From Alphaproteobacteria bacterium (lineage in GTDB: Bacteria > Pseudomonadota > Alphaproteobacteria > UBA828), in assembly GCA_963667785.2 (NCBI GenBank), contig CAXXMU010000001.1, positions 288,001 to 352,000 on the forward strand: a stretch of DNA of 64,000 nt, written 5' to 3'. Within the stretch, counting starts at the first letter, position 1. Every line of letters begins with the position of its first letter. Under the pieces are notes generated by a model. It was not told where the DNA came from. It saw only the letters and a program-made list of their open reading frames with translations, and did not search any database. Position numbers and translations under genes: made by a program. Positions 5,888 to 26,752 of this stretch are shown one piece after another.

Positions 5888-7198
5888 TCAGACCTGGCCC
5901 TCGGCCGGCTTGTGGGTCAGCGCCACGCTGTTGGGCCTCCCCGGCAGGGAGAGCGCCGTCACCGCCGGCGGGGTACGTGCGACCACCTCGCCGCGGCGGA
6001 TCACCGCGAGCCGCGTCGCCCGCAGCCTGATCGCCTCCAGCGGGTCCGCGGCCTGGAGGACGACCATGTCGGCATGGCAGCCGGGCTCCAGCCCGTAGCC
6101 GTCCAGGTGCATGATCCTGGCGGGGTTCACCGTGATCGCGTCGAAGCAGGCCTTCACCTCGTCCGCCCCGAACATGCCCGCCACGTGCGAGCCCATGTGC
6201 GCGACCTCGAGCATGTCGGCGCTGCCATAGACGTACCACGGGTCCATCATGCAATCCTGGCCGAAGGCCAGCGTGATGCCGGCCTCCCTCAGCTCGGGCA
6301 CGCGCGTTATGCCGCGCCATTTCGGATAGCTGCCGTTGTTGTGTCCCCACGCCGCGATGTTGGTGAGCGGATTGGGAGTCACGCCGATCTCCGACTCCGC
6401 AATCAGCGGAATCAGCTTGCTGACGTAGTAGTTGTCCATGACGTGCATGGAGGCCAGGTGCGACGCCGTCACCCGCCCCTGGAGGCCGAGGCGGTGGGTC
6501 TCCCGGGAGAGCGTCTCGATGTGACGCGACATCGGGTCGTCGGTCTCGTCGCAGTGCATGTCGACGAGCAGCCCGCGCTCTGCGGCAATCTCCAACAGCT
6601 CGGTCACCGACGCGGTGCCGTCGGCCATCGTGCGCTCGAAGTGCGGAATGCCGCCGACCACCTCGACTCCCATGTCGAGCGCCCGCCGCAGGTGGTCCTG
6701 CGCGCCCGGGTAGCGGTAGTAGCCCATCTGCGGGAAGGCGATGAGCTGCAGGTCGATGTAGGGCGCGACCCGGCGCTTGACTTCGAGCAGCGCCTCCACG
6801 CCGGTCAGCCTCTCGTCGCAGACGTCGACATGGCTGCGAATCGCCTGGATTCCCTGGGCGATCGCCATGTCGCAATAGGTCATCGCCCGCTCGGCGACCG
6901 CCTCCGGAGTCAATTGGCGCTTCAGCTCGTCCCACAGATAGATGCCCTCGAAGAGGAGGCCGGACTGGTCGGGGCGCGGCAAGGCGTCGGTCAGAGGGCG
7001 CGCCAGCGTCGCATCCATGTGGAAGTGAGCGTCGATGAAGGGCGGCGTGACCAGCCGGTCCGTGGCGTCGATCTCCTGCCCGGCCTCGGCCTGCAGCGCG
7101 GGCTCCACGGCAACGATGCGCCCGTCCTGCACGCCGATGTCCACGCCGGCTCGTCCATCGGGCAGAGTGGCCCCGCGCACGATCAAGTCCATCGCCAT
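5888..7198 (-). CDS. Cytosine/creatinine deaminase-like amidohydrolase (bacterial CodA family)
   Basis: DAHFHMD, GGIPHFE, HCDETDDP, ASH and FGQDC metal-site motifs. Substrate not certain. Confidence 0.85.
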   Translation of the reverse strand: MAMDLIVRGATLPDGRAGVDIGVQDGRIVAVEPALQAEAGQEIDATDRLVTPPFIDAHFHMDATLARPLTDALPRPDQSGLLFEGIYLWDELKRQLTPEAVAERAMTYCDMAIAQGIQAIRSHVDVCDERLTGVEALLEVKRRVAPYIDLQLIAFPQMGYYRYPGAQDHLRRALDMGVEVVGGIPHFERTMADGTASVTELLEIAAERGLLVDMHCDETDDPMSRHIETLSRETHRLGLQGRVTASHLASMHVMDNYYVSKLIPLIAESEIGVTPNPLTNIAAWGHNNGSYPKWRGITRVPELREAGITLAFGQDCMMDPWYVYGSADMLEVAHMGSHVAGMFGADEVKACFDAITVNPARIMHLDGYGLEPGCHADMVVLQAADPLEAIRLRATRLAVIRRGEVVARTPPAVTALSLPGRPNSVALTHKPAEGQV

Positions 7199-7277
7199 GT
7201 CGTCTCTCCCGTTTCTGTTCCGGCCCGTTTCCGCTCTGCCCCGTCTCCCGCCTTGACGCGTAAAGTCCGGCGCCGCT

Positions 7278-8276
7278 CTACGCGTCGCGCCCCAGAAGGC
7301 GGCGGACGATGCGGCGCGCGGCGGCACCAGGCGTGAGCGTGCCTGCCGCGACCTCCGCTTCCAGCGCGTCCACCGCAGGCGCCAGCCGCTCGTCGGCGCG
7401 GAGCGTCGCCATCAGCGTGTCCTCGGCCTCGCGCCAGAGCCAGGCGCGCGCCTGCGCGGCCCGCTTCGCCTCCAGCGCGCCCGCCTGTGAGAGCGTCGCC
7501 CGGTGCCGCTCCACCGCGTTCGCGATCTCGTCGAGGCCGTGGCCCTCCAGCGACGAGCAGGCGATGACGCAGGGGGTCCACGGCCCCTCGCCGGCGTGGA
7601 GCGAGAGCGCGGCCTCGAAGTCCGCCGTGGCGTGGGCGGCAGGGCCCGCCAGCGCGCCGTCGGCCTTGGTGACGACGACGATGTCGGCGCGCTCCACGAC
7701 GCCGCGCTTGATCCCCTGCAGCTCGTCGCCGGCGCCCGGCTGCACCAGCAGCATGGTGAGGTCCACCATGTCGGCGACGGCGGCCTCGGACTGGCCGACG
7801 CCGACGGTCTCCACCATCACCAGGTCGAAGCCCGCCGCCTCGCAGGCGAGCATCACGTCGCGCGTGCGCCGTGCGACGCCGCCGAGCGTGCCGCCGGCGG
7901 GCGAGGCGCGGATGAAGCTCTGCTCGCTCCGGGCGAGCTCCGGCATGCGCGTCTTGTCGCCGAGGATCGAGCCGCCCGAGCGCGTGCTGGAGGGGTCGAT
8001 CGCGAGCACGGCAAGCCGGCGGCCGGCCGCGATCTGCCGGGTGCCGAAGGCCTCGATGAAGGTCGACTTGCCCACCCCCGGCGCGCCCGAGATGCCGAGC
8101 CTGACGGCCTTGCCGGAATGCGGCAGCAACGCCTGGAGCAGCGCCTCGGCCTCGGCGCGATCGGCCTCCCTGGTCGATTCGAGGAGGGTGATCGCCGCCG
8201 CGAGCGCCCGCCGGTCGCCCGCGAGAACCGCGTCGGCCGACGGCGCACGGTCGGCGGTGCCCTTGCTGCCCGTCAT
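7278..8276 (-). CDS. meaB: Methylmalonyl-CoA mutase-associated GTPase MeaB
   Basis: GAPGVGKST, DPSS..SGGSILGDKTRM, ETVGVGQSE and GDELQGIKRG motifs; near the mutase gene. Confidence 0.95.
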   Translation of the reverse strand: MTGSKGTADRAPSADAVLAGDRRALAAAITLLESTREADRAEAEALLQALLPHSGKAVRLGISGAPGVGKSTFIEAFGTRQIAAGRRLAVLAIDPSSTRSGGSILGDKTRMPELARSEQSFIRASPAGGTLGGVARRTRDVMLACEAAGFDLVMVETVGVGQSEAAVADMVDLTMLLVQPGAGDELQGIKRGVVERADIVVVTKADGALAGPAAHATADFEAALSLHAGEGPWTPCVIACSSLEGHGLDEIANAVERHRATLSQAGALEAKRAAQARAWLWREAEDTLMATLRADERLAPAVDALEAEVAAGTLTPGAAARRIVRRLLGRDA

Positions 8277-12439: not shown

Positions 12440-13081
12440 TCACGCTCCCTCGCCGGCGCCGATCGCGTCCAGTCCCCAGGGGGTCCAGCCGTCCGCGCGG
12501 TCGCGCGCGAACAGCTCGATCCGGCGCGCGTCCGGGAACATCGCCTCGATGCGGTGGCGCACCTCGTCGGGCTTCCGCGAATGATTGCCGCGCTTCTCGC
12601 TCACGAGCTGGCGGACGTTGCGGGCGCCGCGCGGCGCCGGAATCCGCCCGTGCTTGAAGACGAGGCAGAGCTCGCACTGGCTGAGCGTATAGAAGCCAGG
12701 GTTGACGCGCTGCTTGTCCCAGACGAAGGCGACCGTGGCCCAGGCGAAGCCCCAGTGCTTGCCGAGCGCGATCGCCTGGTCGAGATGCGGGCTCGACGAC
12801 CACATGAAGAGCAGGCTGTCGCGCGCCCGGATGCGGGGGATGTCGAGCCCGGCGAGCGCCTCCAGCGTCACGGTGGGGTAGTGGCGCGCGGCCCCGCCGG
12901 TGTCCCCGCTGCCGGGCCCGGCGTGCTGAAGCTGCCCGCGATAGTCCCAGGGGGGATCGGCATAGATGATCTCGAACTGCGCCTTCGGCAGGGCGGGGAA
13001 TGCCGCCGCCTCGGCTGGCTGCGGAGTCCGCCGCTGCGCCGGCAGGGTAACGGGGGCCGCCCCCGGAAAGTGCCCGTCCAT
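12440..13081 (-). CDS. MT-A70 family N6-adenine methyltransferase
   Basis: IIYADPPW catalytic motif, LFMW, FVWDK, ELCL...G, HSRKP and RIELFAR...GW..WG. Start uncertain (13081 or 13102). Confidence 0.88.
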
Positions 13082-13220
13082 CGTCTCGCGCCCTTGCGCC
13101 AAAGGTAGACGGCAGAGGCCGCCTGCCGCAAGGCGCGTGGCGCTGCCGCTCGCCGCGTCGATTGAAGGGCGGGCGGGCCTTCGGCATCATGCGCCGACGG
13201 CGCGCACGCGGAGGCGACCC

Positions 13221-14843
13221 ATGCACGCGACCATGATGGACTACCCGCTCACCCTCGCCCACTACCTGGAGCGGGCGGGCACGCTGCTCGGCGATCGCGA
13301 GATCGTCACCCGCCTGCCGGACAGGTCGGTGCACCGCTACCGCTTCGGCGATTTCCACCGCCGCGCGCGGCAGCTCGCCTCGGCGCTGGCCCGCGCGGGG
13401 CTGAAGCGGGGCGAGCCGGTGGCCACCATGAAGTGGAACAACTATCCGCATCAGGAGGCCTATTTCGGCGTGGCCTGCGCCGGCGGCGTGCTGCATACCC
13501 TCAACTTCCGCCTTCACCCGAACGACATAGCCTACATCGCCAACCACGCCGGCGACCGCTTCGTGATCGTGGACGACGTGCTGCTCCCGCTCTTCGAGAA
13601 GGTCCGGCCGGAGATCGCGGCCGAGCGCGTGTTCGTGGTGGCGCTCTCGGGCGCGCCGGTGCCGGCGGGCTACGAGAGCTACGAGGACCTGCTCGGGACC
13701 GGCGACGCCGACGACGACCTGCCCCGGCCGGAGGAGGGCGATGCCTGCGGCGTCTGCTACACCTCGGGCACCACCGGCAGGCCCAAGGGCGTCGTCTACT
13801 CGCACCGCGCGATGGTGCTCCACACCATGGCGATGTGCATGACCGAGCCCTTCGGGCTGAGCCAGAACGACACGATCATGCCGGTGGTGCCGATGTTCCA
13901 CGCCAATGCCTGGGGCCTGCCCTACGGCGCCGTCGCGTCCGGCGCCCGCATCGTCCTGCCCGGCCCCCATCTCGACCCGGTGAGCCTGCTCGATCTCGCC
14001 GAGGCCGAGGGGGTCACGTTCGCCGCCGGCGTGCCGACGATCTGGAACGGAATCCTCCAGGCGCTCGACGCCGAGCCCGACCGCTGGTCGCTCGCTGCGG
14101 GGCTGCGGACCGCAGTCGGCGGCTCGGCTGCGAGCGAGGCGATGATCCGCGGCTTCGACCGCCACGGCGTCCGCACCATCCACGCCTGGGGCATGACCGA
14201 GACCACGCCGCTCGGCAGCGCCGCGGTCCTGAAGTCGTCCATGGAGGCGCTCGACGAGGACACGCGCTACGACTACCGGGCGAAGCAAGGTATCGCCATG
14301 CCCTTCGTCGACATGCGGCTGATGAACGACGCCGGCATGGTGCCCAGGGACGGCGAGACCATGGGCGAGCTGCAGGTGCGCGGGCCCTGGGTCGCCGCCG
14401 CCTATCACGAGTCGGACGAGCTCGCCGACAAGTGGACGGACGACGGCTGGCTGCGAACCGGCGACGTCGCCACCATCGACGCCGAAGGGTTCATGAAGAT
14501 CACCGACCGCACCAAGGACCTGATCAAGTCCGGCGGCGAGTGGATCAGCTCGGTCGATCTGGAGAACGCGCTCATGGGCCACGATGCCGTGAGCGAGGCT
14601 GCGGTCATCGCGGTCCGCCACGCGAAGTGGGAGGAGCGCCCGCTCGCCGTCGTCGTGCTGAAGGAAGGCGCACAGGCGGACGCGGATGCGCTGCAGGGCC
14701 ACCTCGCCGGCCGCTTCGCCAAGTGGTGGCTGCCGGACGACTATGTCTTCGTGGACGAGATCCCGCGCACGTCCACCGGCAAGTTCCTCAAGTCGGCGCT
14801 GCGCGAGCGCTACGAGGAGCGGCTGGTGGCCGGCGACGGCTGA
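13221..14843 (+). CDS. Medium/long-chain fatty acid-CoA ligase (AlkK/DmdB-like)
   Basis: YTSGTTGRPKG, PMFHANAWG, AWGMTE, GWLRTGD and DLIKSGGEWISS; GGAGG RBS. Confidence 0.93.
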   Translation: MHATMMDYPLTLAHYLERAGTLLGDREIVTRLPDRSVHRYRFGDFHRRARQLASALARAGLKRGEPVATMKWNNYPHQEAYFGVACAGGVLHTLNFRLHPNDIAYIANHAGDRFVIVDDVLLPLFEKVRPEIAAERVFVVALSGAPVPAGYESYEDLLGTGDADDDLPRPEEGDACGVCYTSGTTGRPKGVVYSHRAMVLHTMAMCMTEPFGLSQNDTIMPVVPMFHANAWGLPYGAVASGARIVLPGPHLDPVSLLDLAEAEGVTFAAGVPTIWNGILQALDAEPDRWSLAAGLRTAVGGSAASEAMIRGFDRHGVRTIHAWGMTETTPLGSAAVLKSSMEALDEDTRYDYRAKQGIAMPFVDMRLMNDAGMVPRDGETMGELQVRGPWVAAAYHESDELADKWTDDGWLRTGDVATIDAEGFMKITDRTKDLIKSGGEWISSVDLENALMGHDAVSEAAVIAVRHAKWEERPLAVVVLKEGAQADADALQGHLAGRFAKWWLPDDYVFVDEIPRTSTGKFLKSALRERYEERLVAGDG

Positions 14844-16591
14844 GGTTTCGGCGGCACGCGCGCGCCTTCCCGGCGCGCTGCTGTCGCGGCCTCGTCCACC
14901 TGCAGGGGGTCGCCCCGGAAAACCACGCCGAAGAGGCGCGCCGCCTCGTCCGCCGTGTAGTAGCCCCGCATCACGTCCCGCAGCACCAGCGCCGGGTCGC
15001 GCTCGCTCGCATTCCCGTAGCCGCCGCCGCCCGGCGTGGAGACGCGCACCGTGTCGCCGGGGCGGAGCGCGATCTCCTGGTCCTTGGAGAGATGCGGCGG
15101 CCGGTAGGACGTGCCGTCGGCGCGGATCACGTCCACGGTGTTGACCCCGCCGGGCTCGCCGCCCTGGGCGCCGTTCGGCCCGGTGCGGCCGTGGTCCATC
15201 ACCATCGAGGCGTTGGCGGCGCCCCGCCGGAGCGTGCACGCGTAGGTGACGCCGAAGCCGCCGCGCCAGCGGCCGGCCCCGCCCGAGCCCTCGTGCAGGG
15301 AATACTCCTGGAAGAGCACCGGGTACTTCTGCTCCATCACCTCGATGGGCTGCGACTTGGAGATGCCGATGGTCGAGCAGCCGTTGGTGAGCCCGTCGCC
15401 CGCCGGCGAGCCGCCGTAGCCGCCGCCGGTGAAGAGGTACATCACGAAATCCCGCGCCCGCGCGGGGTCGGTTCCGCCCACGGCGAAGTTGCCGGAGGTG
15501 CCGGCGGGCGCGGCGAAGAGGCGCTCGGGGATCGCCTGGGCCAGCGCGTCGAACACGGCCTCGGCGATGCGCTGGCTCACCTCCGCCGCGCAGCCCGAGA
15601 CCGGACGCGGGTACTCGGCATGGAGGAAGGTGCCTCGGGGCTCTTCGATGTGCAGCGGCTCGAACATGCCGGCGTTGATCGGCACGTCGGGGAAGACGTG
15701 GCGGATCGCGAGATAGATCGAGGACTTGGTGGTCGCCGCCACGCTGTTCATGGGGCCGGCGCAGGGCGGGCTCGAGCGCGCCATGTCGAAGTGGAGCTCG
15801 GTCCCCGCCACGCGCACCCGCATGTCGATGGTGAGCGGCTCGTTCACCACGCCGTCGGAATCGACCTGGGCGTGGCCGCGATAGGTGCCGTCGGGGATGG
15901 TCGCGATCTTGGCCCGCATCTGCTGCGCCGCGCGCCGGCGCATCTCGGCGATCACGTCCTCGACGAGCGCCGCGCCGTACTTGTCGAGCAGGGCCGTCAT
16001 CCGCCGCGCGCCCACCAGCAGCGCCGACGACTGGGCCTCGATGTCGCCGATGCGCTGCTCCGGCACGCGGATGTTGGAGAGGATGATGGAGAGGAGCTCC
16101 TCGTCGATCCTCCCCTCCTTGTAGAGCTTGACCGGCGGGAAGCGCAGGCCCTCCTGCACCACCTCGGTGGCGCGCGCCGAGAACCCGCCCGGCACCATGC
16201 CGCCGGTGTCCGGCCAGTGGCCTGTGTTGGAGAGCCAGGCGAAGTGCGCGCCCCGGTAGAAGAAGGGCATGGCGAAGCGCACGTCCATCAGGTGGGTGCC
16301 GCCGAGATAGGGGTCGTTGACGGCGAAGATGTCGCCCTCGCGCACGGTGGGCTTCGTGGCGATCAGATGCTCGGTCGAGAACTGCATCGTGCCGACGAAG
16401 ACCGGCAGCCCCAGCTCGCCCTGCGCGATGAGCTTGCCGTCCTCCTTCGCGTAGATGCCGTCCGAGCGGTCGAGTCCCTCGGAGATGACCGGGCTGAAGG
16501 CGGAGCGCACGAAGGCGAGGTCCATCTCGTTGCAGACCTGCTGCAGGCCGCTCTGCACCACGCCGAGGGTGATGGGATCGAGGCTGCTCAC
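14810..16591 (-). CDS. Hydantoinase B / 5-oxoprolinase family subunit
   Basis: LDPITL, RSAFSPVISE, NDPYLGGTHLMD, HWPDTGG.VPG, GGAGRWRGG and TPGGGGYG. GTG start overlaps the upstream stop (GTGA). Confidence 0.92.
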   Translation of the reverse strand: MSSLDPITLGVVQSGLQQVCNEMDLAFVRSAFSPVISEGLDRSDGIYAKEDGKLIAQGELGLPVFVGTMQFSTEHLIATKPTVREGDIFAVNDPYLGGTHLMDVRFAMPFFYRGAHFAWLSNTGHWPDTGGMVPGGFSARATEVVQEGLRFPPVKLYKEGRIDEELLSIILSNIRVPEQRIGDIEAQSSALLVGARRMTALLDKYGAALVEDVIAEMRRRAAQQMRAKIATIPDGTYRGHAQVDSDGVVNEPLTIDMRVRVAGTELHFDMARSSPPCAGPMNSVAATTKSSIYLAIRHVFPDVPINAGMFEPLHIEEPRGTFLHAEYPRPVSGCAAEVSQRIAEAVFDALAQAIPERLFAAPAGTSGNFAVGGTDPARARDFVMYLFTGGGYGGSPAGDGLTNGCSTIGISKSQPIEVMEQKYPVLFQEYSLHEGSGGAGRWRGGFGVTYACTLRRGAANASMVMDHGRTGPNGAQGGEPGGVNTVDVIRADGTSYRPPHLSKDQEIALRPGDTVRVSTPGGGGYGNASERDPALVLRDVMRGYYTADEAARLFGVVFRGDPLQVDEAATAARREGARVPPKPQPSPATSRSS

Positions 16592-18627
16592 GGGCCGATC
16601 TCCACGATCAGGTTGCCGATGGCATCGAGGGATGCCCGGTTGCCCGGCTCGACGACGCTGGTGCAGTCGGTCTGCTGGATGATCGCCGGACCCTCGAAGC
16701 CGGCGCCGGCAGGGAGCCGCTCGCGGTCGTAGACCGGCGTCTCCTGCCAGCCGGCGGGGAACCAGACGCGGCGGGAGCCGACCACCGCCTCGCCCAGGGT
16801 CGCGGCCTGGCGCGCGCCCGCGAGCGCCGCGAGCGGCACCGCGGGCCGGGCGCCGATCACGGCGGTGTGGAGGTTGACGAGCACCGGGCGGATCGTGTCG
16901 AGCGCGACGGCGAAGCGCTCCCAGTATGCCGCCTCGAAGGCCTGCTGCAGCGCCTCGCGCGTCGCGTCGGGTCGCTCCACGGGCACCGTCAGCAGGTGGG
17001 TCTGCCCCTCGAACTGCATGTCGGCGCTGTGGTGGCAGGCGATGGCGCCGACCGCGACGCCCTCGTCCGCGATGGCTGCGCGCCCCTGCGCCGCCTGGCG
17101 TTCGAGGATCGCGCGCACGCCCGCCACGTCGACGTCCGCCAGCGGCGCGTTCACCGTGTTCACGAAGTCGTGGCGGATGTCGGCGGTGATGCAGCCGACG
17201 GCGCTGGTGATCCCCGGCCGGGCCGGGATCATCACGCGCGGGATGCCGAGCTCGGCAGCAAGCGCTGCGGCGTGCATGGGGCCGGCGCCGCCGAAGGCGA
17301 ACAGCACGAAGTCGCGCGGGTCGTGGCCGCGCGCGAGCGTCGCCATGCGGATCGCGCCGGCCATGCGGTCGTTGGCGATGCGGATCACCGCGGCCGCAGC
17401 ACCCTCGGCATCGAGGCCGAGCGGGCCGCCGACGGTCTCCGCGAACACGGCCCGCACGGCGCCCGCCGCGACCGGGGAGTCCACCGCCAGCAGCGAGTCC
17501 GGATCGAGCCGGCCGAGGATCAGGTTGGCGTCGGTGAGCGTCGGCCGCGCGCCGCCCCGGCCGTAGCAGATCGGCCCCGGCTGGGCGCCGGCGCTCTCCG
17601 GCCCCACCTGGAGCAGGCCGGCCTCGTCGATCCGCGCGATGCTGCCGCCGCCGGCGCCGACCGTGTGCACGTCCACCATGGGGACGTGGATCGGCATGCC
17701 GTGCTCCAGCTCCATCTCGGCCGTGACCGCCGGCACGCCCTCCAGCACAAGGCCCACGTCGGCGCTGGTGCCGCCGGTGTCGAAGGTGATCAGGTCGCGG
17801 CACCCGGCGGCGCGGCCGATGGCGGCGGCGGCCATGACGCCCGAGGCGGGGCCGGAGAGCACGGTGTTGACGGCCTTCGCCGCGGCCGAGCGGGCGGAGA
17901 CGCTGCCGCCGTTGCCCTGGATCACCAGCAGCTCGCGCCCGTAGCCGCGCGCGCCCAGCTCGCTCTCGAGCTGGTCGAGATAGCGGTGCAGCAGCGGCTG
18001 GACGCAGGCGTTCACCGCCGCGGCGACGCCGCGCTCGTACTCGCGGAACTCGGAGAGGATCGCGTGGCCGGCGGTGACGTGGCCGCCGGGCCAGCACTCG
18101 CGGGCGATGGCGAGCGCGCGCTCCTCGTGCCGGGGGTTCTTGTAGCTGTGCAGGAAGTGGATCACCAGCGAATCGCAGCCGGCGGCCTCCAGCGTCGTCA
18201 GCGCGGCGCGCACCGCGTCCTCGTCCAGCGGCACCAGCACCTCACCGGCGGCGTCCATGCGCTCCGGCACCTCGATGCGCAGCTCGCGCGGGATCAACGG
18301 CGTGAAGCTGCCGATGAGTCCGTAGGCGTGGGGCCGCGTGCGCCGGCCGAGCTCGAGGATGTCGCGGAAGCCCTGCGTCGTGATCAGGCCGCAGCGGCTG
18401 AGCTTGCGCTCGAGCAGCGCGTTGGTGGTGACCGTGGTGCCGTGAACGATGGCGGCGATGTCGGCGAAGGAGGCGGCGGCCCGGTCGAGCGCCGCGAGCA
18501 CGCCCGCTGCCTGGTTCGCCGGCGTCGACGGCACCTTGGCCAGGCGCACGGCGCCGGTCTCGGGCTCCACGAGGATGAGATCGGTGAAGGTTCCGCCGAC
18601 ATCCACGCCGACGACCGCGCCGCTCAT
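16588..18627 (-). CDS. Hydantoinase A / 5-oxoprolinase family ATP-binding subunit
   Basis: GVDVGGTFTD, HGTTVTTNA, SGPASG, DTGGTSAD, GAGGGSIA and FGGAGPMHA. Confidence 0.93.
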   Translation of the reverse strand: MSGAVVGVDVGGTFTDLILVEPETGAVRLAKVPSTPANQAAGVLAALDRAAASFADIAAIVHGTTVTTNALLERKLSRCGLITTQGFRDILELGRRTRPHAYGLIGSFTPLIPRELRIEVPERMDAAGEVLVPLDEDAVRAALTTLEAAGCDSLVIHFLHSYKNPRHEERALAIARECWPGGHVTAGHAILSEFREYERGVAAAVNACVQPLLHRYLDQLESELGARGYGRELLVIQGNGGSVSARSAAAKAVNTVLSGPASGVMAAAAIGRAAGCRDLITFDTGGTSADVGLVLEGVPAVTAEMELEHGMPIHVPMVDVHTVGAGGGSIARIDEAGLLQVGPESAGAQPGPICYGRGGARPTLTDANLILGRLDPDSLLAVDSPVAAGAVRAVFAETVGGPLGLDAEGAAAAVIRIANDRMAGAIRMATLARGHDPRDFVLFAFGGAGPMHAAALAAELGIPRVMIPARPGITSAVGCITADIRHDFVNTVNAPLADVDVAGVRAILERQAAQGRAAIADEGVAVGAIACHHSADMQFEGQTHLLTVPVERPDATREALQQAFEAAYWERFAVALDTIRPVLVNLHTAVIGARPAVPLAALAGARQAATLGEAVVGSRRVWFPAGWQETPVYDRERLPAGAGFEGPAIIQQTDCTSVVEPGNRASLDAIGNLIVEIGP

Positions 18628-18634
18628 GAAACGC

Positions 18635-19510
18635 TCATGCGGCGACGGAGGCGCGGCCTGCGCCACCGGCGTCCGCCGGCGCGAGCGCGCGGGTCTCGCC
18701 CTGGAGCGCGAGGCGGGCCGTCTCGATGAGGCCGGCGCGCTGCATCGCCCGCGCCTCCGCAAGCCCGGCATCCAGCGCCGCCGCTACGGCATGGGCGGGG
18801 AGCGGTCCCACCGCGACAATAACCAGTTGCATGCCCAGGTCGCTGTCCTCGCGAAGCGACACGGCCGGCGCGCGCTCGATGGCCGGATGGTCGAGCGTGA
18901 TCGCGTTGGCGATCAGCGTCGCCGCGGCGTCCGCCGCAGCCGCCGTCCGCGCCAGCACCGTGACCGCATCGGCGATGCCGAGCGAGAGCGAGCGCCCGCG
19001 CCAGCCCGACGTCGCCATGCCCCGTGCGGGTGCGTCCGCGCCGAGAGTGATCCGCCCGTCGAGTCCCGGCCGGTCGGGGTCGTTCACCACGCCCGCGGCG
19101 AGCGCGGTTCCAGCCGTGAGATGCACGGCGATGTCGCCGCCGTTGTTGGCGTAGGCGCGCGAAAGGCGGCGCCCAGCCGTCATGGCGGCCAGCACCTCGT
19201 CGGCGACGGCGCCGGCGACTGCCGCCATGGGCGTGACGAAGCGCGCCCGATGGGGCCAGCAGGCGTCCACCATGCGCCGCGCCACCGGGCCGCGCGGTGC
19301 AGGCCGCGTCTCGCCGAGGGGGCGGCGCAGCAGGGCGAGCTCGGCCACCAGGTCGCCCAGGATCGCGGCGAAGCATTCGCCCGCCTGGCGGTAGGCGGCG
19401 CCCACCTCCGCCGCCTCACCGAAGGCCTCGGCCACGATGTCGATCGGCCCGTGCTGCAGGTGCAGCCTGCGGCCGTCGCCCAGCATCGCGATGCGGGCCG
19501 TGCCGCTCAT
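18635..19510 (-). CDS. UPF0280 family protein (ApbE-like)
   Basis: RLHLQHGPID, TPMAAVAGAVAD, NNGGDIA, ATSGWRGRSLSLGIADAV and ADAAAT. Confidence 0.87.
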   Translation of the reverse strand: MSGTARIAMLGDGRRLHLQHGPIDIVAEAFGEAAEVGAAYRQAGECFAAILGDLVAELALLRRPLGETRPAPRGPVARRMVDACWPHRARFVTPMAAVAGAVADEVLAAMTAGRRLSRAYANNGGDIAVHLTAGTALAAGVVNDPDRPGLDGRITLGADAPARGMATSGWRGRSLSLGIADAVTVLARTAAAADAAATLIANAITLDHPAIERAPAVSLREDSDLGMQLVIVAVGPLPAHAVAAALDAGLAEARAMQRAGLIETARLALQGETRALAPADAGGAGRASVAA

Positions 19511-20982
19511 CGCGGCCCGCGCTCCGGCAGCGGCCAGGGGTTCGCGGCGGGCCACGGCTCGGCCCTGTGGTCGGCATCCTCCAGCGCGTCCGCCAGCGGC
19601 ACGACGCGGTCGACGTGGCCGCCGAGGGCCGCGAACTCGGCCAGGCTGAGCGTGAACTCGATGGGGGCGACCAGCGCCGGCGTCGGCACGTAGCCGAAGG
19701 CATCGGCCGGCATGCGGGTCACGTCCACCATGAAGGTGATGCCGCCGCCGGGCCAGACGTGGACCGGCGCGCCGCCGGCGGTGACGCGGGTGAGCGCGTC
19801 CTTGATGGAGCGGGTGAGCCGCACCGGGTTCTCGGTGACGCCCGCGCGCAGGCTCCCGCCCGCGCCCGCCATGAAGAGCACGGTGCAGAGCGCGGGCTCG
19901 CAGTTCTCGGCGATGCGCTCCACCACGGTCTCGATCGCCGCCGGCATCGGCGCGGGCCGCGGCGTCAGCGTCTCGTCCAGCTCGAACCAGGCGGCGTCCT
20001 CGCCGGTGGTGGAGACCATGTGGAGCCTGAGCCCCGGCCACGCCTTCTTCGGGTCGATCCTCTCGATGATCTCCAGCGGATCGTCGATGTCGGTGGCGGC
20101 CCAGCCGCGCCCCTTGCGCGCCACCTGGAAGTAGCGCCCCGGCGTCGAGCGGCGACCCCGCACGCGGATTCCGCTGGGCGGCATGTCGAGGAAGCGCCCG
20201 GCCTGGTGCTCGGTGAGAACGCCGGTGATCTGGTCGTCGACCACGATCACCTCGTCGGCATGGCCGTGCCACTGGCGCGCGAACATGCCCATGGCGGCGG
20301 AGCCGCAGCCGGCCCGCATGCGCTCCTCGCGCTGGCCGTCCACCACCGGCGCCGCGCCCGCCTGGACGACGAGCTCCGCCCCGCCGTCCACCGTGAGCGT
20401 CGCCGGCTTGCCGTTGCAGAGGTCGAGCAGGGCGGCGCAGGTGACGGTGCCCTCGCGCTTGCTGCCGCCGGTGAAGTGCCGCACGCCGCCCAGCGAGAGC
20501 ATCTGCGAGCCGTACTCGGCCGTGGTGACGTGGCCGATGGGCTCGCCGTCGGCCCGCACCGAGGCCTGCTCGGGGCCGACGTGGCGGTCGGTGTCGATCT
20601 TCACCTTCACGCCGCAGTAGCTGAAGATTCCCTCCGAGACGACGGTCACCATGTCCACGCCCGCCGCTTCGCTCGCGATGATGAAGGGGGCGGGCTTGTA
20701 GTCGGGATAGGTGGTGCCGGAGCCGATGCCGGTCACGAAGCGCTCGCGCGGGGCGACCACGCCGCCGTCCCAGTCCTCCGCCCCGTCGAGGAAAGGCACC
20801 AGCGCGTCCGCACGCTCGGTGACGAGCAGCGGGTCCACGCGGGTCAGCGTGCCGCTGACATTGGCGTAGCGGTCGCAGGCGCCGACCTTGCCCTCGCGTA
20901 TGCGGCAGAGCACCGGGCAGGCGTCGCAGCGGATGATGGAGGCGCCGTCCCTGGCCGCGCGCCCAGCCTTCTGCTCGGTCAC
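19507..20982 (-). CDS. hnr: 6-hydroxynicotinate reductase-like Fe-S flavoprotein
   Basis: N-terminal CDACPVLC...GACDRYAN, GTTYPDYKPAPF, EGIFSYCG, EYGSQMLSLGG, RAGCGSA and GAGGSLRAG; adjacent to the Mo-hydroxylase and UPF0280 genes. Confidence 0.82.
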   Translation of the reverse strand: MTEQKAGRAARDGASIIRCDACPVLCRIREGKVGACDRYANVSGTLTRVDPLLVTERADALVPFLDGAEDWDGGVVAPRERFVTGIGSGTTYPDYKPAPFIIASEAAGVDMVTVVSEGIFSYCGVKVKIDTDRHVGPEQASVRADGEPIGHVTTAEYGSQMLSLGGVRHFTGGSKREGTVTCAALLDLCNGKPATLTVDGGAELVVQAGAAPVVDGQREERMRAGCGSAAMGMFARQWHGHADEVIVVDDQITGVLTEHQAGRFLDMPPSGIRVRGRRSTPGRYFQVARKGRGWAATDIDDPLEIIERIDPKKAWPGLRLHMVSTTGEDAAWFELDETLTPRPAPMPAAIETVVERIAENCEPALCTVLFMAGAGGSLRAGVTENPVRLTRSIKDALTRVTAGGAPVHVWPGGGITFMVDVTRMPADAFGYVPTPALVAPIEFTLSLAEFAALGGHVDRVVPLADALEDADHRAEPWPAANPWPLPERGPR

Positions 20983-23747
20983 GGGCCGGCCTCCCGCTCC
21001 CTGAGCGCCCGGCGCAGCCGGTGGGGCAGGGCGGGCACCCGGGTGACCCGCACGCCCGTGGCGTGGCGGATGGCGCCGAGGATGGCCGGCGCGGTCGGCA
21101 CCAGGCCCGGCTCGCCCACGCCCTTGGCGCCGAAGGGGCCGAGAGGCTCGGGGTCCTCGACGATGATGACCTCGATCTCCGGCACGTCGCCGATGGTCGG
21201 GATCAGATAGTCGTGCAGGTTCTCGGTCCGGCCCGGCAGATACTCCTCCATCAGCGCGAGCCCGATGCCCTGGGCGATCCCGCCCTCGATCTGGCCCTCC
21301 ACCTGGGTCGGGTTGATGGCGCGGCCGACATCGTGCGCGGCATGGATGCGGACGGGCGTCACGGTTCCGAGCTCGGTGTCCACGTCGACCACGGCGATCT
21401 GCGCGCCGAACGCGTAGGTCGCGTAGGGCTTGCCCTGGCCCTTGGCGTCGAGCGCGGTGGTCGGCGGGTCGAAGCGGCCCGTGCCCTCCAGCACCACGCC
21501 CGCCGCATCGGCCTTCAGCCGGCCGAGGTCGATCTCCGTCCGCCGCGCGCCGTCGCGTACCGTCACGCGCCCGGCCGCGAGCTCGATGCGTGCGCCGTCG
21601 CCGGCATTGGCCTCGCGCAGGATCGCCGCGCGCAGGGCGGCGCCGGCAAGCGCGGCCGCCTTGCCGGAGACGAAGGTCTGGCGCGAGGCGGAGGTCTTGC
21701 CGGCGTCCTCGGTCCAGTCGGTGTCGCCGATCACCTGGGCGATCCGGTCCGCCGCCACGCCGAGGGCATCGGCGCAGATCTGGGCGAGGATCGTGGTCGA
21801 GCCCTGGCCGATATCGACCGCGCCGTTGTAGAGGGTGAGCCGGCCCTCGCGGTCGAGGGCGACGCGCATCGAGGACGGGTTGCTGAGCGCGGTGTTGCCG
21901 ATGCCGTACCACATGCAGCCGATGCCGGCGCCGCGCCGCAGCGGGCCGCCCTGCCGGTTGGCCTGCGCGGCGTCCTCGAGCGCGCGCTGCCAGCGGGCCG
22001 CGAGCGCTTCCAGGCAGGGGGCGAGCCCGGCGCTCGCCTCCAGCACCTGGCCCGTCGCGGTCGCATCGCCGACACGGATCGCGTTCTTCAGGCGCATCTC
22101 CAGCCGGTCCATGCCGAGCCCGTCCGCGAGGTCGTCCATCAGCGCCTCGTGGGCGATGGCGGCCTGGGGCACGCCGAAGCCGCGGAAGGCACCGGCGGGC
22201 GGCCCGTTGGTATAGAAGGCCCGGCCGCGCGCCGAGACGTGAGGCACGGCGTAGGGGCCCGAAGCGTGGATTGGCACGCGGCTCGCCACGGTCGGCCCCC
22301 AGGAGGCGTAGGCGCCGGTGTCGAAGGTGGCATCGAACGCGACCGCCTGCAGCCTGCCGTCGGAATCGCAGCCGAAGCGCGCCTCGATCGCCGTGGGATG
22401 GCGCTTGGGGCTCGCCATCATGCTCTCGGGCCGCTCGTAGACGCAGGCGACCGGCTTGGCCGTGAGCCAGGCGGCGAGCGCCGTGAGCGGCTGGACCGAG
22501 ACGTCGAGCTTGCCGCCGAAGCCGCCGCCGCAGGCGCTCGGCACGATCCGCACTTGCGTGGGCGCGAGGCCCAGCACCTCGGCCGTCGAGTCCCGGTTCA
22601 TCACCGGCGTCTGGGTCGAGACGAAGAGCTCGACTCGCCCGCCTGCCCGCCTCGCCCAGCCGGCCTCGGGCTCGATGTAGGCGTGCTCGACGAACGCGGT
22701 CTCGAAGCGTCCCCCGGCCGTCACCGCCGCACCCGCCAGCGCTGCTTCCGCGTCCCCGCGCTCGACCCCGCCCTCGATCAGGCGGTTGCCCTCGGCGTCA
22801 TCGTGGACGAGCGGCGCGGCGGGCGCGCGGGCCTCGTCCAGGCCGTGCACGGCCGGCAGCGGCTCGTAGGCGATCGGCAGGTCCGCGTCGCGCAGCGCCG
22901 TCACCGCCTCGCGCGTGCCCACCAGCGCCGCGACGGGATCGCCCCGGTAGCGCACGAGACCCTCGGCCAGCACCGGCTGGTCCCGCAGGTCGGGGTAGAT
23001 GCCGACACGGTTGTAGGGCACGTCGGCGGCGGTAAGCACGCGCTCCACGCCGGGCCGGGCGGCGGCCACCGCCTCCAGGTCGCCGAGGGTGACTCGCGCC
23101 GAGTCATGAGGCGAGCGGACGATCCTGAGCCAGAGCGCGTCGGCCGGCACGGCGTCGGCGCCGTAGCGCTCGGCGCCGGTGAGCTTGGGCATGCCGTCCG
23201 GCTTCGGCATGCGGGCGCCGACGGCGGCGCCGGCAGGGGGTGCCGCGAGCGGCAGCGGGCCGTCGCCCGCCGCGTCCAGCACCGCCGCCACGATCTTGCG
23301 ATAGCCCGTGCAGCGGCAGAGGACGCCGCCGAGGCCGTCCATCACCTCCGCCGGGCGGGGGCGGGGAGAGGCGCGCAGCAGTTCCGTCGCGGCGATCAGC
23401 ATGCCGGGCGTGCACGCGCCGCATTGCGCCGCGCCGTGGCGCAGGAAGGCCCGCTGCAGGCGGTTCAGCCGGCCGTTCGCGGCAAGCCCTTCCACGGTGG
23501 TCACGTGGCGCCCTGCGGCCTGGGCCAACGACACCATGCAGCTACAGACCTGTTCGCCGTCGAGCAGCACCGTGCAGGCGCCGCAGTCGCCGGCGTTGCA
23601 GCCGACCTTGGTCCCGGTCAGGCCGAGATCGTCGCGCAGCGCATCGGCGAGGCGACGGAGCGGCGGCGCGGCGACGGCGACCTCGCGCCCGTTGACCGTG
23701 AACGCGGTGGTGCCGTCGCTCGCGGCGCACGTGCCGTTCCCGCTCAC
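20979..23747 (-). CDS. Xanthine-dehydrogenase-family Mo-hydroxylase, fused 2x[2Fe-2S] and molybdopterin domains (nicotinate dehydrogenase-like)
   Basis: GCNAGDCGAC, QCGACTPG, CRCTGY, HAYIEPE, GGGFGGK, FRGFG and GAKGVGEP; adjacent to hnr. Confidence 0.9.
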   Translation of the reverse strand: MSGNGTCAASDGTTAFTVNGREVAVAAPPLRRLADALRDDLGLTGTKVGCNAGDCGACTVLLDGEQVCSCMVSLAQAAGRHVTTVEGLAANGRLNRLQRAFLRHGAAQCGACTPGMLIAATELLRASPRPRPAEVMDGLGGVLCRCTGYRKIVAAVLDAAGDGPLPLAAPPAGAAVGARMPKPDGMPKLTGAERYGADAVPADALWLRIVRSPHDSARVTLGDLEAVAAARPGVERVLTAADVPYNRVGIYPDLRDQPVLAEGLVRYRGDPVAALVGTREAVTALRDADLPIAYEPLPAVHGLDEARAPAAPLVHDDAEGNRLIEGGVERGDAEAALAGAAVTAGGRFETAFVEHAYIEPEAGWARRAGGRVELFVSTQTPVMNRDSTAEVLGLAPTQVRIVPSACGGGFGGKLDVSVQPLTALAAWLTAKPVACVYERPESMMASPKRHPTAIEARFGCDSDGRLQAVAFDATFDTGAYASWGPTVASRVPIHASGPYAVPHVSARGRAFYTNGPPAGAFRGFGVPQAAIAHEALMDDLADGLGMDRLEMRLKNAIRVGDATATGQVLEASAGLAPCLEALAARWQRALEDAAQANRQGGPLRRGAGIGCMWYGIGNTALSNPSSMRVALDREGRLTLYNGAVDIGQGSTTILAQICADALGVAADRIAQVIGDTDWTEDAGKTSASRQTFVSGKAAALAGAALRAAILREANAGDGARIELAAGRVTVRDGARRTEIDLGRLKADAAGVVLEGTGRFDPPTTALDAKGQGKPYATYAFGAQIAVVDVDTELGTVTPVRIHAAHDVGRAINPTQVEGQIEGGIAQGIGLALMEEYLPGRTENLHDYLIPTIGDVPEIEVIIVEDPEPLGPFGAKGVGEPGLVPTAPAILGAIRHATGVRVTRVPALPHRLRRALREREAGP

Positions 23748-24589
23748 ATCATGCTCCCGAGCTCGGCGAGCGTGCGCGCCGTCAGCGTCCGTGCCGCATC
23801 GAGGCGATAGGCAGCGGAACCGCGCGCATCGTCGAGCGGCGCAAGCGGCGCCATGTGCGCGTCCGTCACGGCCCGGCCGAGCGATTCGTCGCAGTTGCGG
23901 CCGAGGAGCGCCTCCTCCAGCGCCGGCAGGCGGCGCGCCACCGGCGAGCAGGCGCCGACCGCGACCGCGGCGCGCACGATGCGGCCGTCCGCGTCCGTCT
24001 CCAGCGCCGCCGCCGCCATGACGATCGAGATCACCAGGTAGCGCCGGGCGCCGAGCTTGAGGAAGTGCCCGCGCGCCCGCTCCGCAGCGGGCCTGGGCAC
24101 GCGCACCGCCAGCATGAGCTGGTCCGGCGCGAGCGCCGTCTCGCGGTTGCCGCGGATGAAGGCGGCGAGCGGCATGGTCTCCCGCCGCTCGTGCGAGGCG
24201 AGCTCCACCTCGGCGCCGAGGCTGAGCAGCACCGGCACACCGTCGGCGGCGGGCGAGGCGTTGCAGAGATTGCCGCAGAGCGTGCCGGCGTTCTGCACCT
24301 GGCGGCCGCCGATCTCGAGCGCCGCCAGCTTGAGGCCGTCGAACCAGGGGGGCAGGTCGGCCCGGACGATATCGGTCCAGGTCGCGAGCGCAGGAATGCG
24401 CCAGTGGTCCGCGCGCTCCTCGATCGCGCGCATCGAGTCGAGCGCGGTGATGTCGAGGACGGGCTCGTCGAGCGGCTTGCCCACCCGCGCCGGGTAGAAG
24501 TCGGTGCCGCCGGCCAGCACCGTCAGCCGCCGGCTGCCGAGCGCCGCCAGCGCATCGTCGAGGGCGGTGGGACGCAGGTAGTCCGGCAT
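23744..24589 (-). CDS. FAD-binding subunit of xanthine-dehydrogenase-family enzyme
   Basis: LAGGTD, QVQNAGTLCGNLCNASPAAD and DDARGSAAYR. Confidence 0.9.
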   Translation of the reverse strand: MPDYLRPTALDDALAALGSRRLTVLAGGTDFYPARVGKPLDEPVLDITALDSMRAIEERADHWRIPALATWTDIVRADLPPWFDGLKLAALEIGGRQVQNAGTLCGNLCNASPAADGVPVLLSLGAEVELASHERRETMPLAAFIRGNRETALAPDQLMLAVRVPRPAAERARGHFLKLGARRYLVISIVMAAAALETDADGRIVRAAVAVGACSPVARRLPALEEALLGRNCDESLGRAVTDAHMAPLAPLDDARGSAAYRLDAARTLTARTLAELGSMM

Positions 24590-24685
24590 CACGGCAGCCT
24601 CATCTCGCTTTCCATGATACCGGAAATGCCGGCTCTCCACGCCCGGCGGCCGTATCCGGCCGGGGCGAGGCCCGGCGCGGCTGCG

Positions 24686-25321
24686 TCAGGCGCCGGGGTC
24701 GGGGAGGCGCGCCCCGTAGAGCCATGGCTGGGCGGCCCTCTGCCTCGCCTCGAAGGCGTCGATCTCGGCGGCCCTGGCGAGCGTGATGCCGATATCGTCG
24801 AGCCCGTTCAGCAGCCGGTGCTTGCGGAAGGGCTCGATCTCGAAGGCGACGGTCTCGCCGTTCGAGCGCGTGATGGTCTGGGCTTCCAGGTCCACCGCCA
24901 TCCGGCAGGTCTGCGCGTTGCCGGCGTCGGCCGTCAGCGTGTTCGTGTCATCCTCGGGCAGCGCGACGAGCAGGATGCCGTTCTTGACGCAGTTGTTGAA
25001 GAAGATGTCGGCGAAGCTCGGCGCGATCACGCAGCGGATGCCGAAGTCCTCGAGCGCCCAAGGCGCGTGCTCGCGGCTCGACCCGCAGCCGAAGTTCTGG
25101 CCGGCGACAAGGATGCAGGCCTCGTTCCAGGGCGCCCGGTTGAGGACGAAGTCCGGAACCGGGCGGTCCTCCATGTCGTAGCGGAAGTCGTGGAAGAGGC
25201 CCTTGCCGAGCCCGGCACGGCTGATCGCGGTGAGGTACTGCTTGGGGATGATCTGGTCGGTATCGACGTTGATCATCGGCAGCGCCGCCGCCGGGCCCGA
25301 GAGGGTCGTGAAGGTGCGCAT
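24686..25321 (-). CDS. leuD: 3-isopropylmalate dehydratase small subunit
   Basis: [22 protein letters not shown] and SFADIF. Confidence 0.96.
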
Positions 25322-25333
25322 GACGGGCCCTCC

Positions 25334-26752
<1,419 letters not shown>

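Follow-up and report, generated by a model that had tools for sequence, protein, structure and literature searches.

A 64,000-nucleotide stretch of contig CAXXMU010000001.1 (positions 288001 to 352000 of the forward strand; GenBank assembly GCA_963667785.2, an alphaproteobacterium of the lineage UBA828), hereafter the window, carries a six-gene operon related to known clusters for nicotinate degradation, in which a predicted ATP-dependent lactamase pair, HyuA/HyuB, is found instead of the usual enamidase. The source genome comprises 4.09 Mb in 14 contigs, and the window (G000:C1:288001-352000; G, C and L denote our numbered genomes, contigs and loci) has a G+C content of ~70%. The closest public records are metagenome-assembled genomes of Rhodospirillales, whose 6-hydroxynicotinate reductase (Hnr) homologue is 93% identical. 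Six consecutive open reading frames (ORFs), none with an internal stop, occupy positions 14810-24589:

23744-24589, minus strand: flavin adenine dinucleotide (FAD) subunit, 281 aa from ATG, or 298 aa with an alternative GTG at 24640
20979-23747, minus strand: fused iron-sulfur and molybdenum (FeS-Mo) subunit, 922 aa
19507-20982, minus strand: Hnr homologue, 491 aa
18635-19510, minus strand: UPF0280 protein, 291 aa
16588-18627, minus strand: HyuA, 679 aa
14810-16591, minus strand: HyuB, 593 aa

From the FAD gene to hyuB, the successive junctions are GTGA, GTGA, ATGA, a 7-nt gap and GTGA, and the six genes are translationally coupled. A preliminary description, made from the sequence alone, had given the same six co-oriented genes, 4-nt overlaps, 7-nt gap and protein families, and our analysis confirmed all of these at the same coordinates. 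Pfam and NCBIfam models placed five of the six proteins, the exception being the Hnr homologue, which had no model above threshold in either collection. No amidohydrolase fold was found among the six proteins (no Amidohydro domain in Pfam), and no gene for a regulator, a linked transporter or an amidohydrolase lies within the operon.

The pair at the end of the operon belongs to the hydantoinase/oxoprolinase families. HyuA matched Hydant_A_N (186 bits, cut-off 25), Hydantoinase_A (300 bits, cut-off 23) and Hydant_A_C, while HyuB matched Hydantoinase_B (533 bits, cut-off 27). In the caprolactamase CapAB of Pseudomonas jessenii, the CapA subunit contains the ATP motifs phosphate-1 (DxGGTxxD), phosphate-2 (DxGGT) and adenosine (GxxPGP), and the CapB subunit has the metal tetrad D41/H99/D102/H124, ligands that were mutated in CapB (PMC8453981). 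All three of these ASKHA motifs are held by the HyuA translation (DVGGTFTD, DTGGT and GAQPGP), and D41, H100, D103 and H125 of HyuB align with the CapB tetrad in a HMMER alignment to 6YRA_B. As far as the available text of the sources describes them, CapAB (6YRA), N-methylhydantoinase (7HK5/9H03) and OplBA are, like HyuAB, built of two subunits, with the ATP motifs in A and an Asp-His-Asp-His metal site in B.

Among structurally characterized proteins, HyuA scored highest with N-methylhydantoinase (451 bits), followed by CapA (394 bits), compared with 338 and 260 bits for carboxylases (260 for acetone carboxylase). HyuB scored 280 bits with CapB and 251 bits with N-methylhydantoinase, compared with 132 and 57 bits for the acetone/acetophenone carboxylases. 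By these scores, HyuA and HyuB are closer to the hydrolytic lactamases than to the carboxylases. The caprolactamase equivalogs NF050156 and NF050157 gave 507.7 and 328.5 bits, below the cut-off of 1000 for each, and by this measure HyuAB is a relative of caprolactamase and not caprolactamase itself. Some six positions that are hydrophobic in the CapB pocket (PMC8453981) are polar in HyuB, although this was read by hand from an alignment at ~30% identity and is of low confidence. The known ATP-dependent lactamases act on five- to seven-membered lactams, delta-lactams included (PMC8453981, PMC11033972), and OplBA, a 5-oxoprolinase, also hydrolyses valerolactam (PMC11033972). The substrate predicted for HyuAB is a carboxylated cyclic enamide, a compound class that no characterised lactamase is reported to use in the available text of these papers.

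The first two genes of the operon encode a molybdenum hydroxylase of the xanthine dehydrogenase family, a putative nicotinate dehydrogenase. The FAD subunit contains FAD_binding_5 (PF00941, 120 bits) and CO_deh_flav_C (PF03450, 60 bits), and the FeS-Mo subunit contains Fer2, Fer2_2, Ald_Xan_dh_C, MoCoBD_1 and MoCoBD_2, so that the domain set of the family (FAD, two [2Fe-2S] and molybdenum cofactor) is complete. In a PDB search, the FeS-Mo subunit matched the aldehyde oxidoreductase of D. gigas with 406 bits and chains L, M and S of the nicotinate dehydrogenase of Eubacterium barkeri (3HRD) with 277, 227 and 132 bits. Summed, the three 3HRD chains reach 636 bits, above every other PDB entry; no NCBIfam equivalog cut-off was reached.

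The Hnr homologue, present in a single copy in the source genome, has 72-94% identity with proteins to which NCBI or JGI give the name 6-hydroxynicotinate reductase, an annotation in each case. It shares 38-45% identity with relatives of ~510 aa, which carry an N-terminal double CxxCxxCxxxCP (two-ferredoxin) extension; the protein in the window is a short form without it. Across 17 diverse homologues, with identities as low as 32%, residues C19, C22, C26 and C36 do not vary. The following gene product matched NF003322 (the PRK04334 equivalog of UPF0280) with 359.8 bits against a cut-off of 290, and its predicted structure (mean predicted local distance difference test score 92) has an ApbE-like fold. 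The Foldseek matches of this model were DVU1097 (E 4e-10) and the flavin transferases ApbE, Ftp and FmnB (E 1e-4 to 1e-3), with template modelling scores of 0.4-0.58 and a probability of about 1. The Hnr of E. barkeri contains two [4Fe-4S] clusters, one [2Fe-2S] cluster and covalently bound flavin, the covalent flavin reportedly from the work of Alhapel and colleagues in 2006. Because of the ApbE-like fold and this covalent flavin, it is reasonable to propose that UPF0280 is a flavin transferase or maturation factor that flavinylates Hnr. In addition, two database proteins of 751 and 782 aa (P0004, P0007) span Hnr at 92-94% identity and have an extra domain, PF27030; they may be fusions of Hnr with UPF0280 or result from merged gene calls.

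To place the operon among its relatives, Hnr loci were collected by a pattern scan in which each species was represented by one genome, which yielded 571 Hnr relatives. The results below use the best 80 of the 571 loci, all from species other than that of the window, which cover the 65-94% Hnr clade and not the anaerobe-type forms. From these loci, 955 ORFs that passed a filter on codon-position GC were clustered by BLAST, and cluster representatives were scanned; one lower-GC locus (L025) fell outside the codon-GC filter and was annotated from its ORF list. The FeS-Mo gene lies upstream of Hnr in 68 of the 80 loci and an orthologue of the FAD subunit in 62, while Hnr is followed by UPF0280 in 73; of the seven remaining loci, six end at or just past Hnr. 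Other recurrent members are MarR, one or two AA_synth proteins (PF06684), a coenzyme A (CoA)-transferase III and transport genes (a Peripla_BP_6 binding protein, a permease and two ATPases). The cluster further contains either an amidohydrolase of ~397 aa, which is an orthologue of the E. barkeri enamidase (PDB 2VUN, E 2.3e-111, 376 bits, full length), or a HyuA/HyuB pair.

This core of FAD, FeS-Mo, Hnr and UPF0280 genes is the already published proteobacterial nicotinate cluster, which normally includes an enamidase. Shettigar et al. (2012) described a cluster conserved in Azorhizobium caulinodans, Bradyrhizobium japonicum, Rhodopseudomonas palustris and strain SG-6C that comprises Hnr, a Mo-hydroxylase, an ATP-binding cassette (ABC) transporter and two unknown proteins, and assigned to it the first three steps of nicotinate degradation, including the amidohydrolase step (PMC3511419). 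The Hnr of this Bradyrhizobiaceae cluster shares 42% identity with that of E. barkeri (PMC3511419). As presented in the available text, the clusters of Azorhizobium ORS571, B. japonicum USDA110, R. palustris HaA2 and SG-6C have the same order of Mo-hydroxylase subunits, Hnr and a conserved unknown protein (UPF0280), and a route through 1,4,5,6-tetrahydro-6-oxonicotinate (THON) is presumed both for them and for the window operon. However, compared with the published cluster as presented there, the window operon lacks the enamidase, AA_synth, MarR and a linked transporter and has HyuA/HyuB instead. The word "hydantoinase" does not occur in the text of PMC3511419. Across the 80 loci, including those with the enamidase-bearing form, Hnr, FeS-Mo and UPF0280 are 50-75% identical to those of the window; the four strains of PMC3511419 are not among these loci.

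The nicotinate fermentation cluster of E. barkeri was reportedly described by Alhapel and colleagues in 2006. In that cluster, nicotinate dehydrogenase is followed by Hnr, yielding THON, and the putative dehydrogenase and the Hnr homologue of the window operon would act in the same succession. However, the E. barkeri dehydrogenase consists of four separate subunits, whereas a single protein combines FeS and Mo in the window, and the window operon has neither B12 mutase nor dimethylmalate genes attached. Ring opening in E. barkeri is performed by an enamidase of the amidohydrolase fold (PDB 2VUN) and not by an ATP-dependent pair. The enamidase converts THON to ammonia and (S)-2-formylglutarate (PMC7356986).

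Two further members of the cluster deserve mention. Two paralogous AA_synth types travel with it (L011, L015, L018, L025, L026, L031, L036, L038, L039, L043, L045, L052 and others); the second type usually adjoins the enamidase, and HyuAB-type loci mostly retain the first type only. A tblastn search found no AA_synth gene in the source genome. An orthologue of the cluster-type ABC transporter is present there but unlinked (G000:C1:782064-786755, L083), with a binding protein 79% identical to the representative, and adjoins an amidase, a short-chain dehydrogenase and a luciferase-like monooxygenase.

HyuAB and the enamidase are alternatives at Hnr loci. Within 10 kb of Hnr, HyuA and/or HyuB was present in 22 of the 80 loci; an enamidase orthologue was present in 20, and no locus had both. 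The preliminary description had asked whether the two are mutually exclusive in Hnr neighbourhoods, and these counts answer that they are. The two enzymes also share positions. HyuA directly follows the last ABC ATPase gene in eight loci (L016, L042, L064, L068, L073, L074, L077, L078), and the enamidase takes the same slot in three (L027, L038, L039). Elsewhere, HyuAB directly follows UPF0280 (the window, L002-L004, L020, L037), follows AA_synth (L007, G021) or precedes the FAD gene (L034, L069, L072, L075, L080), and it is always co-oriented with the cluster.

The alternation is nearly exclusive genome-wide. Among 20 HyuAB-type genomes, 16 had no enamidase homologue (E <= 1e-20), three had a paralogue at 40-43% identity and one had an orthologue. 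Conversely, 19 of 20 enamidase-type genomes had no HyuB (E <= 1e-150), and the copy in the remaining one (G061, 61% identity) falls in a sister paralogue clade. Five genomes with neither gene in the Hnr flank each have exactly one of the two elsewhere: three have a cluster-type enamidase (64-85%) and no close HyuB, and two have a close HyuB (66% and 72%) and no enamidase. Within the genus of the window, 17 of 20 other genomes contain Hnr, and 16 of these 17 have a HyuB orthologue (87-92%) 3-5 kb from it, the exception being a genome that is 62% complete; none of the three Hnr-negative genomes has the HyuB orthologue.

Since hydantoinase/oxoprolinase pairs are numerous in this genome, we considered that the neighbourhood of HyuAB and the Hnr genes might be fortuitous, HyuAB being one of many such pairs. 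The source genome contains 23 HyuB-like genes at >=85% query coverage in its 4.09 Mb, an unusually large expansion of ATP-dependent lactamase/carboxylase pairs. One other pair (C1:1042001-1045720) is ~60% identical to that of the operon and adjoins a 2-hydroxyacid dehydrogenase and an EamA transporter. However, the 4-nt overlaps and the 7-nt gap bind HyuAB to the upstream genes, and HyuB presence tracks Hnr within the genus. Trees were built by quick maximum-likelihood searches, with branch support from the Shimodaira-Hasegawa-like approximate likelihood ratio test (SH-aLRT) only. In the HyuB tree of 42 rows, all 14 of the 14 Hnr-linked copies, from many alpha- and betaproteobacterial families, fall in one clade (SH-aLRT 99), whose sister consists of five unlinked paralogues at ~60% identity, including the G061 copy and the C1:1042001-1045720 pair. 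The single clade indicates that the Hnr-linked pair is a dedicated orthogroup rather than a random family member, and a chance neighbourhood is very improbable. No NCBIfam model covers this clade.

A second alternative concerns the substrate. The preliminary description had suggested that HyuAB-type clusters degrade another pyridine carboxylate, namely an N-methylated one such as trigonelline or homarine, whose reduced lactam would be beyond the enamidase and would need an ATP-driven lactamase. ATP-dependent lactamases are indeed known for N-substituted and stable lactams, and N-methylhydantoinase is the top PDB match of HyuA. Marine invertebrates are rich in such betaines, and near-identical DNA occurs in sponge metagenomes. 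The Hnr tree argues otherwise. In this tree of 78 proteins, the Hnr of HyuAB-type and enamidase-type clusters are intermingled: on 43 labelled rows, no fewer than six changes of the HyuAB/enamidase label are required (shuffled mean 14.4), of which strongly supported branches alone force two. The sister loci L025 (HyuAB) and L052 (enamidase; SH-aLRT 100) are of opposite types and otherwise syntenic, both with the order 2-oxoacid:ferredoxin oxidoreductase, FAD, FeS-Mo, Hnr, UPF0280, AA_synth, second Mo-hydroxylase large subunit, AA_synth and ring-opening enzyme. The same family of periplasmic binding proteins also serves both types (54-70% identity to one representative), and no gene for a demethylase or an oxygenase was found in the operon by Pfam domains. 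The interleaving of Hnr and the shared binding-protein family argue that both cluster types would handle the same lactam. The suggestion of an N-methylated substrate thus found no support and appears quite unlikely.

A third alternative leaves nicotinate as the substrate and places HyuAB at another step, such as 6-oxopiperidine-3-carboxylate, a side-product lactam or salvage, while THON is opened by an enamidase paralogue or an unrecognised hydrolase. We therefore looked at the amidohydrolases of the source genome. The sole amidohydrolase in the window (5888-7411) was rejected as the missing enamidase, being a homologue of cytosine deaminase (E 5e-98). A tblastn search of the whole genome with seven cluster-type enamidases (the representative and six further members) found a single locus, G000:C5:436297-437478, at 37-41% identity, and no cluster-type orthologue, given that Hnr-associated enamidases are 64-85% identical to one another. 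The existence of this full-length member of the enamidase family favours the third alternative, as does the fact that AA_synth proteins of unknown function accompany the cluster in most other species.

Several features of the C5 paralogue point the other way. Its metal motif is DSQVH (Gln66, QxH), whereas that of 2VUN is DTHVH and that of the cluster-type enamidases DSHVH, with HxH in 22 of 22 of the latter, and it deviates at 39 positions that are invariant among them. It is preceded by a MarR gene and a gene for an HpaB-like flavin monooxygenase. The paralogue is present in the Hnr-negative genomes G017, G025, G027 and G028 and was not found in the Hnr-positive genomes G021 and G023. In 4-hydroxypyridine catabolism, KpiC, an enamidase-like amidohydrolase that follows a flavin monooxygenase, is a ring-cleaving dioxygenase (PMC7356986), so that membership in the amidohydrolase family does not imply enamidase activity. 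Judging from these residues and this gene context, we do not count the C5 paralogue as a bona fide enamidase. The absence of any enamidase homologue from 16 of the 20 HyuAB-type genomes and the negative tblastn result for AA_synth in the source genome likewise speak against the third alternative, which we regard as unlikely, although less so than the two preceding ones. The preliminary description had called for an enamidase search in the rest of the genome; this search returned only the divergent QxH paralogue, in another gene context and independent of Hnr. A true enamidase elsewhere in the genome together with a non-conserved linkage of hnr and hyuAB, which it had named as contrary evidence, was not found.

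The region of the C5 paralogue has further peculiarities. A divergently oriented gene of the isochorismatase family lies near it (G000:C5:434000-437500, L082 6142-9482), and the paralogue shows 89-92% identity with copies from a different family of the order, yet only 76-79% within its own genus. The idea that contig C5 is foreign to the genome was rejected, as its GC and tetranucleotide profile match those of C1 (correlation 0.9989). The region may be a transferred cassette for another N-heterocycle.

We favour, with a probability of about 0.65, the explanation that the operon is a stripped-down reductive nicotinate cluster of the E. barkeri/Azorhizobium type in which a dedicated ATP-dependent lactamase, HyuA/HyuB, has displaced the enamidase. 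This explanation builds on the gene content, the protein families, the intact motifs, the linkage and the complementarity with the enamidase, and from these it predicts the substrates, the coupling of ATP to THON and the fate of the product. The preliminary description had likewise suggested that the operon, having no enamidase, may use HyuAB for ATP-driven ring opening, which the nearly exclusive distribution supports by comparative genomics. In the proposed route, the FAD and FeS-Mo subunits would hydroxylate nicotinate at C6 to 6-hydroxynicotinate, which Hnr, probably matured by the ApbE-like UPF0280, would reduce to the cyclic enamide THON; these two steps are proposed because of homology and the published cluster. 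HyuA would then spend ATP to phosphorylate the lactim tautomer at the lactam oxygen, giving a phospho-lactim, an activation that has been proposed for CapAB (PMC8453981). The activated lactam would pass to HyuB, where a metal-bound water would open the ring to 2-(aminomethylidene)glutarate, and this enamine would tautomerise and hydrolyse to 2-formylglutarate and ammonium. The three latter steps are proposed because of the analogy with the CapAB mechanism and the complementarity with the enamidase.

It should be noted that several points weigh against this explanation. Neither gene was found in the available DNA of 38 of the 80 loci, many of them short contigs, and five such genomes were checked. 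The exclusivity is not absolute: G048 has an Hnr cluster that contains HyuA and, on another contig, an enamidase orthologue at 73-75% identity. The compared genomes are related and not independent, so that the counts describe a pattern and are not a statistic. With 22 other HyuB paralogues in the genome, a HyuAB pair beside any given gene is not rare per se. The C5 paralogue is a full-length homologue of 2VUN (317 bits) and could conceivably act on THON. All substrate assignments rest on homology and context, and the explanation offers no reason for an ATP-independent enzyme to give way to one that spends ATP.

Extending the displacement of the enamidase beyond the window, we consider it somewhat better than an even chance that the distinct lactamase clade is the THON hydrolase of a large share of the Hnr-carrying Alpha- and Betaproteobacteria and has repeatedly been swapped with the enamidase as a cassette in the same slot.

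Next to the Hnr cluster, several marine loci encode a two-subunit 2-oxoacid:ferredoxin oxidoreductase (POR/TPP_enzyme_C), which may be a low-potential electron source for Hnr in aerobes:

L020, 2129-4033: 2-oxoacid:ferredoxin oxidoreductase
L025, 3229-6162: 2-oxoacid:ferredoxin oxidoreductase
L052, 1021-2886: 2-oxoacid:ferredoxin oxidoreductase
L067, 6788-7813: 2-oxoacid:ferredoxin oxidoreductase

The window operon is flanked upstream by leuD, leuC, rplS, trmD, rimM and ffh, and downstream by a convergent AMP-dependent ligase, an MT-A70 methyltransferase and a methylmalonyl-CoA mutase. The ligase ORF shares 34 nt with hyuB at their 3' ends (14810-14843), and its annotated 5' end runs into the methyltransferase ORF (12440-13102). 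The Pfam match of the ligase begins only at residue 110, so its true start probably lies later; the ligase is syntenic within the genus only (L002, L004). In 14300-25400, a scan for promoters and terminators detected nothing promoter-like and a single terminator-like site, which is within shuffled expectation. One RNA library contained related sequence as contigs of 145-272 nt at 90-95% identity, for which DNA carry-over is possible. Sponge metagenome runs from several studies contained pieces of 14810-24589, up to 2.1 kb, at 96-100% identity, and the organism or its close kin is probably sponge-associated.

A full-text literature search, outside whose coverage most subscription journals lie, found no paper that ties Hnr, THON or hydroxynicotinate to an enzyme of the hydantoinase/oxoprolinase type. 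The pathway and the enzyme family are both known; new, as inferred here, would be the non-orthologous replacement and the predicted new substrate. If true, the catabolism of nicotinate (vitamin B3) would gain its first ATP-driven ring opening, and carboxylated enamides would form a new substrate class for ATP-dependent lactamases, enzymes of practical interest for the mild hydrolysis of stable delta-lactams. The replacement would also fill a pathway hole, since standard reconstruction would call the route incomplete in the 16 of 20 HyuAB-type Hnr genomes without an enamidase homologue, and the widespread hydantoinase/oxoprolinase annotation would gain a concrete and testable physiological substrate. 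As a clear example of non-orthologous displacement, one and the same step would be entrusted in some genomes to an inexpensive hydrolase and in others to a machine that consumes ATP, and the conditions under which irreversibility or affinity repays the ATP would become a tractable question. If the explanation is correct, the coupling to ATP may make the step irreversible and allow the scavenging of very low nicotinate concentrations, for example by sponge-associated bacteria.

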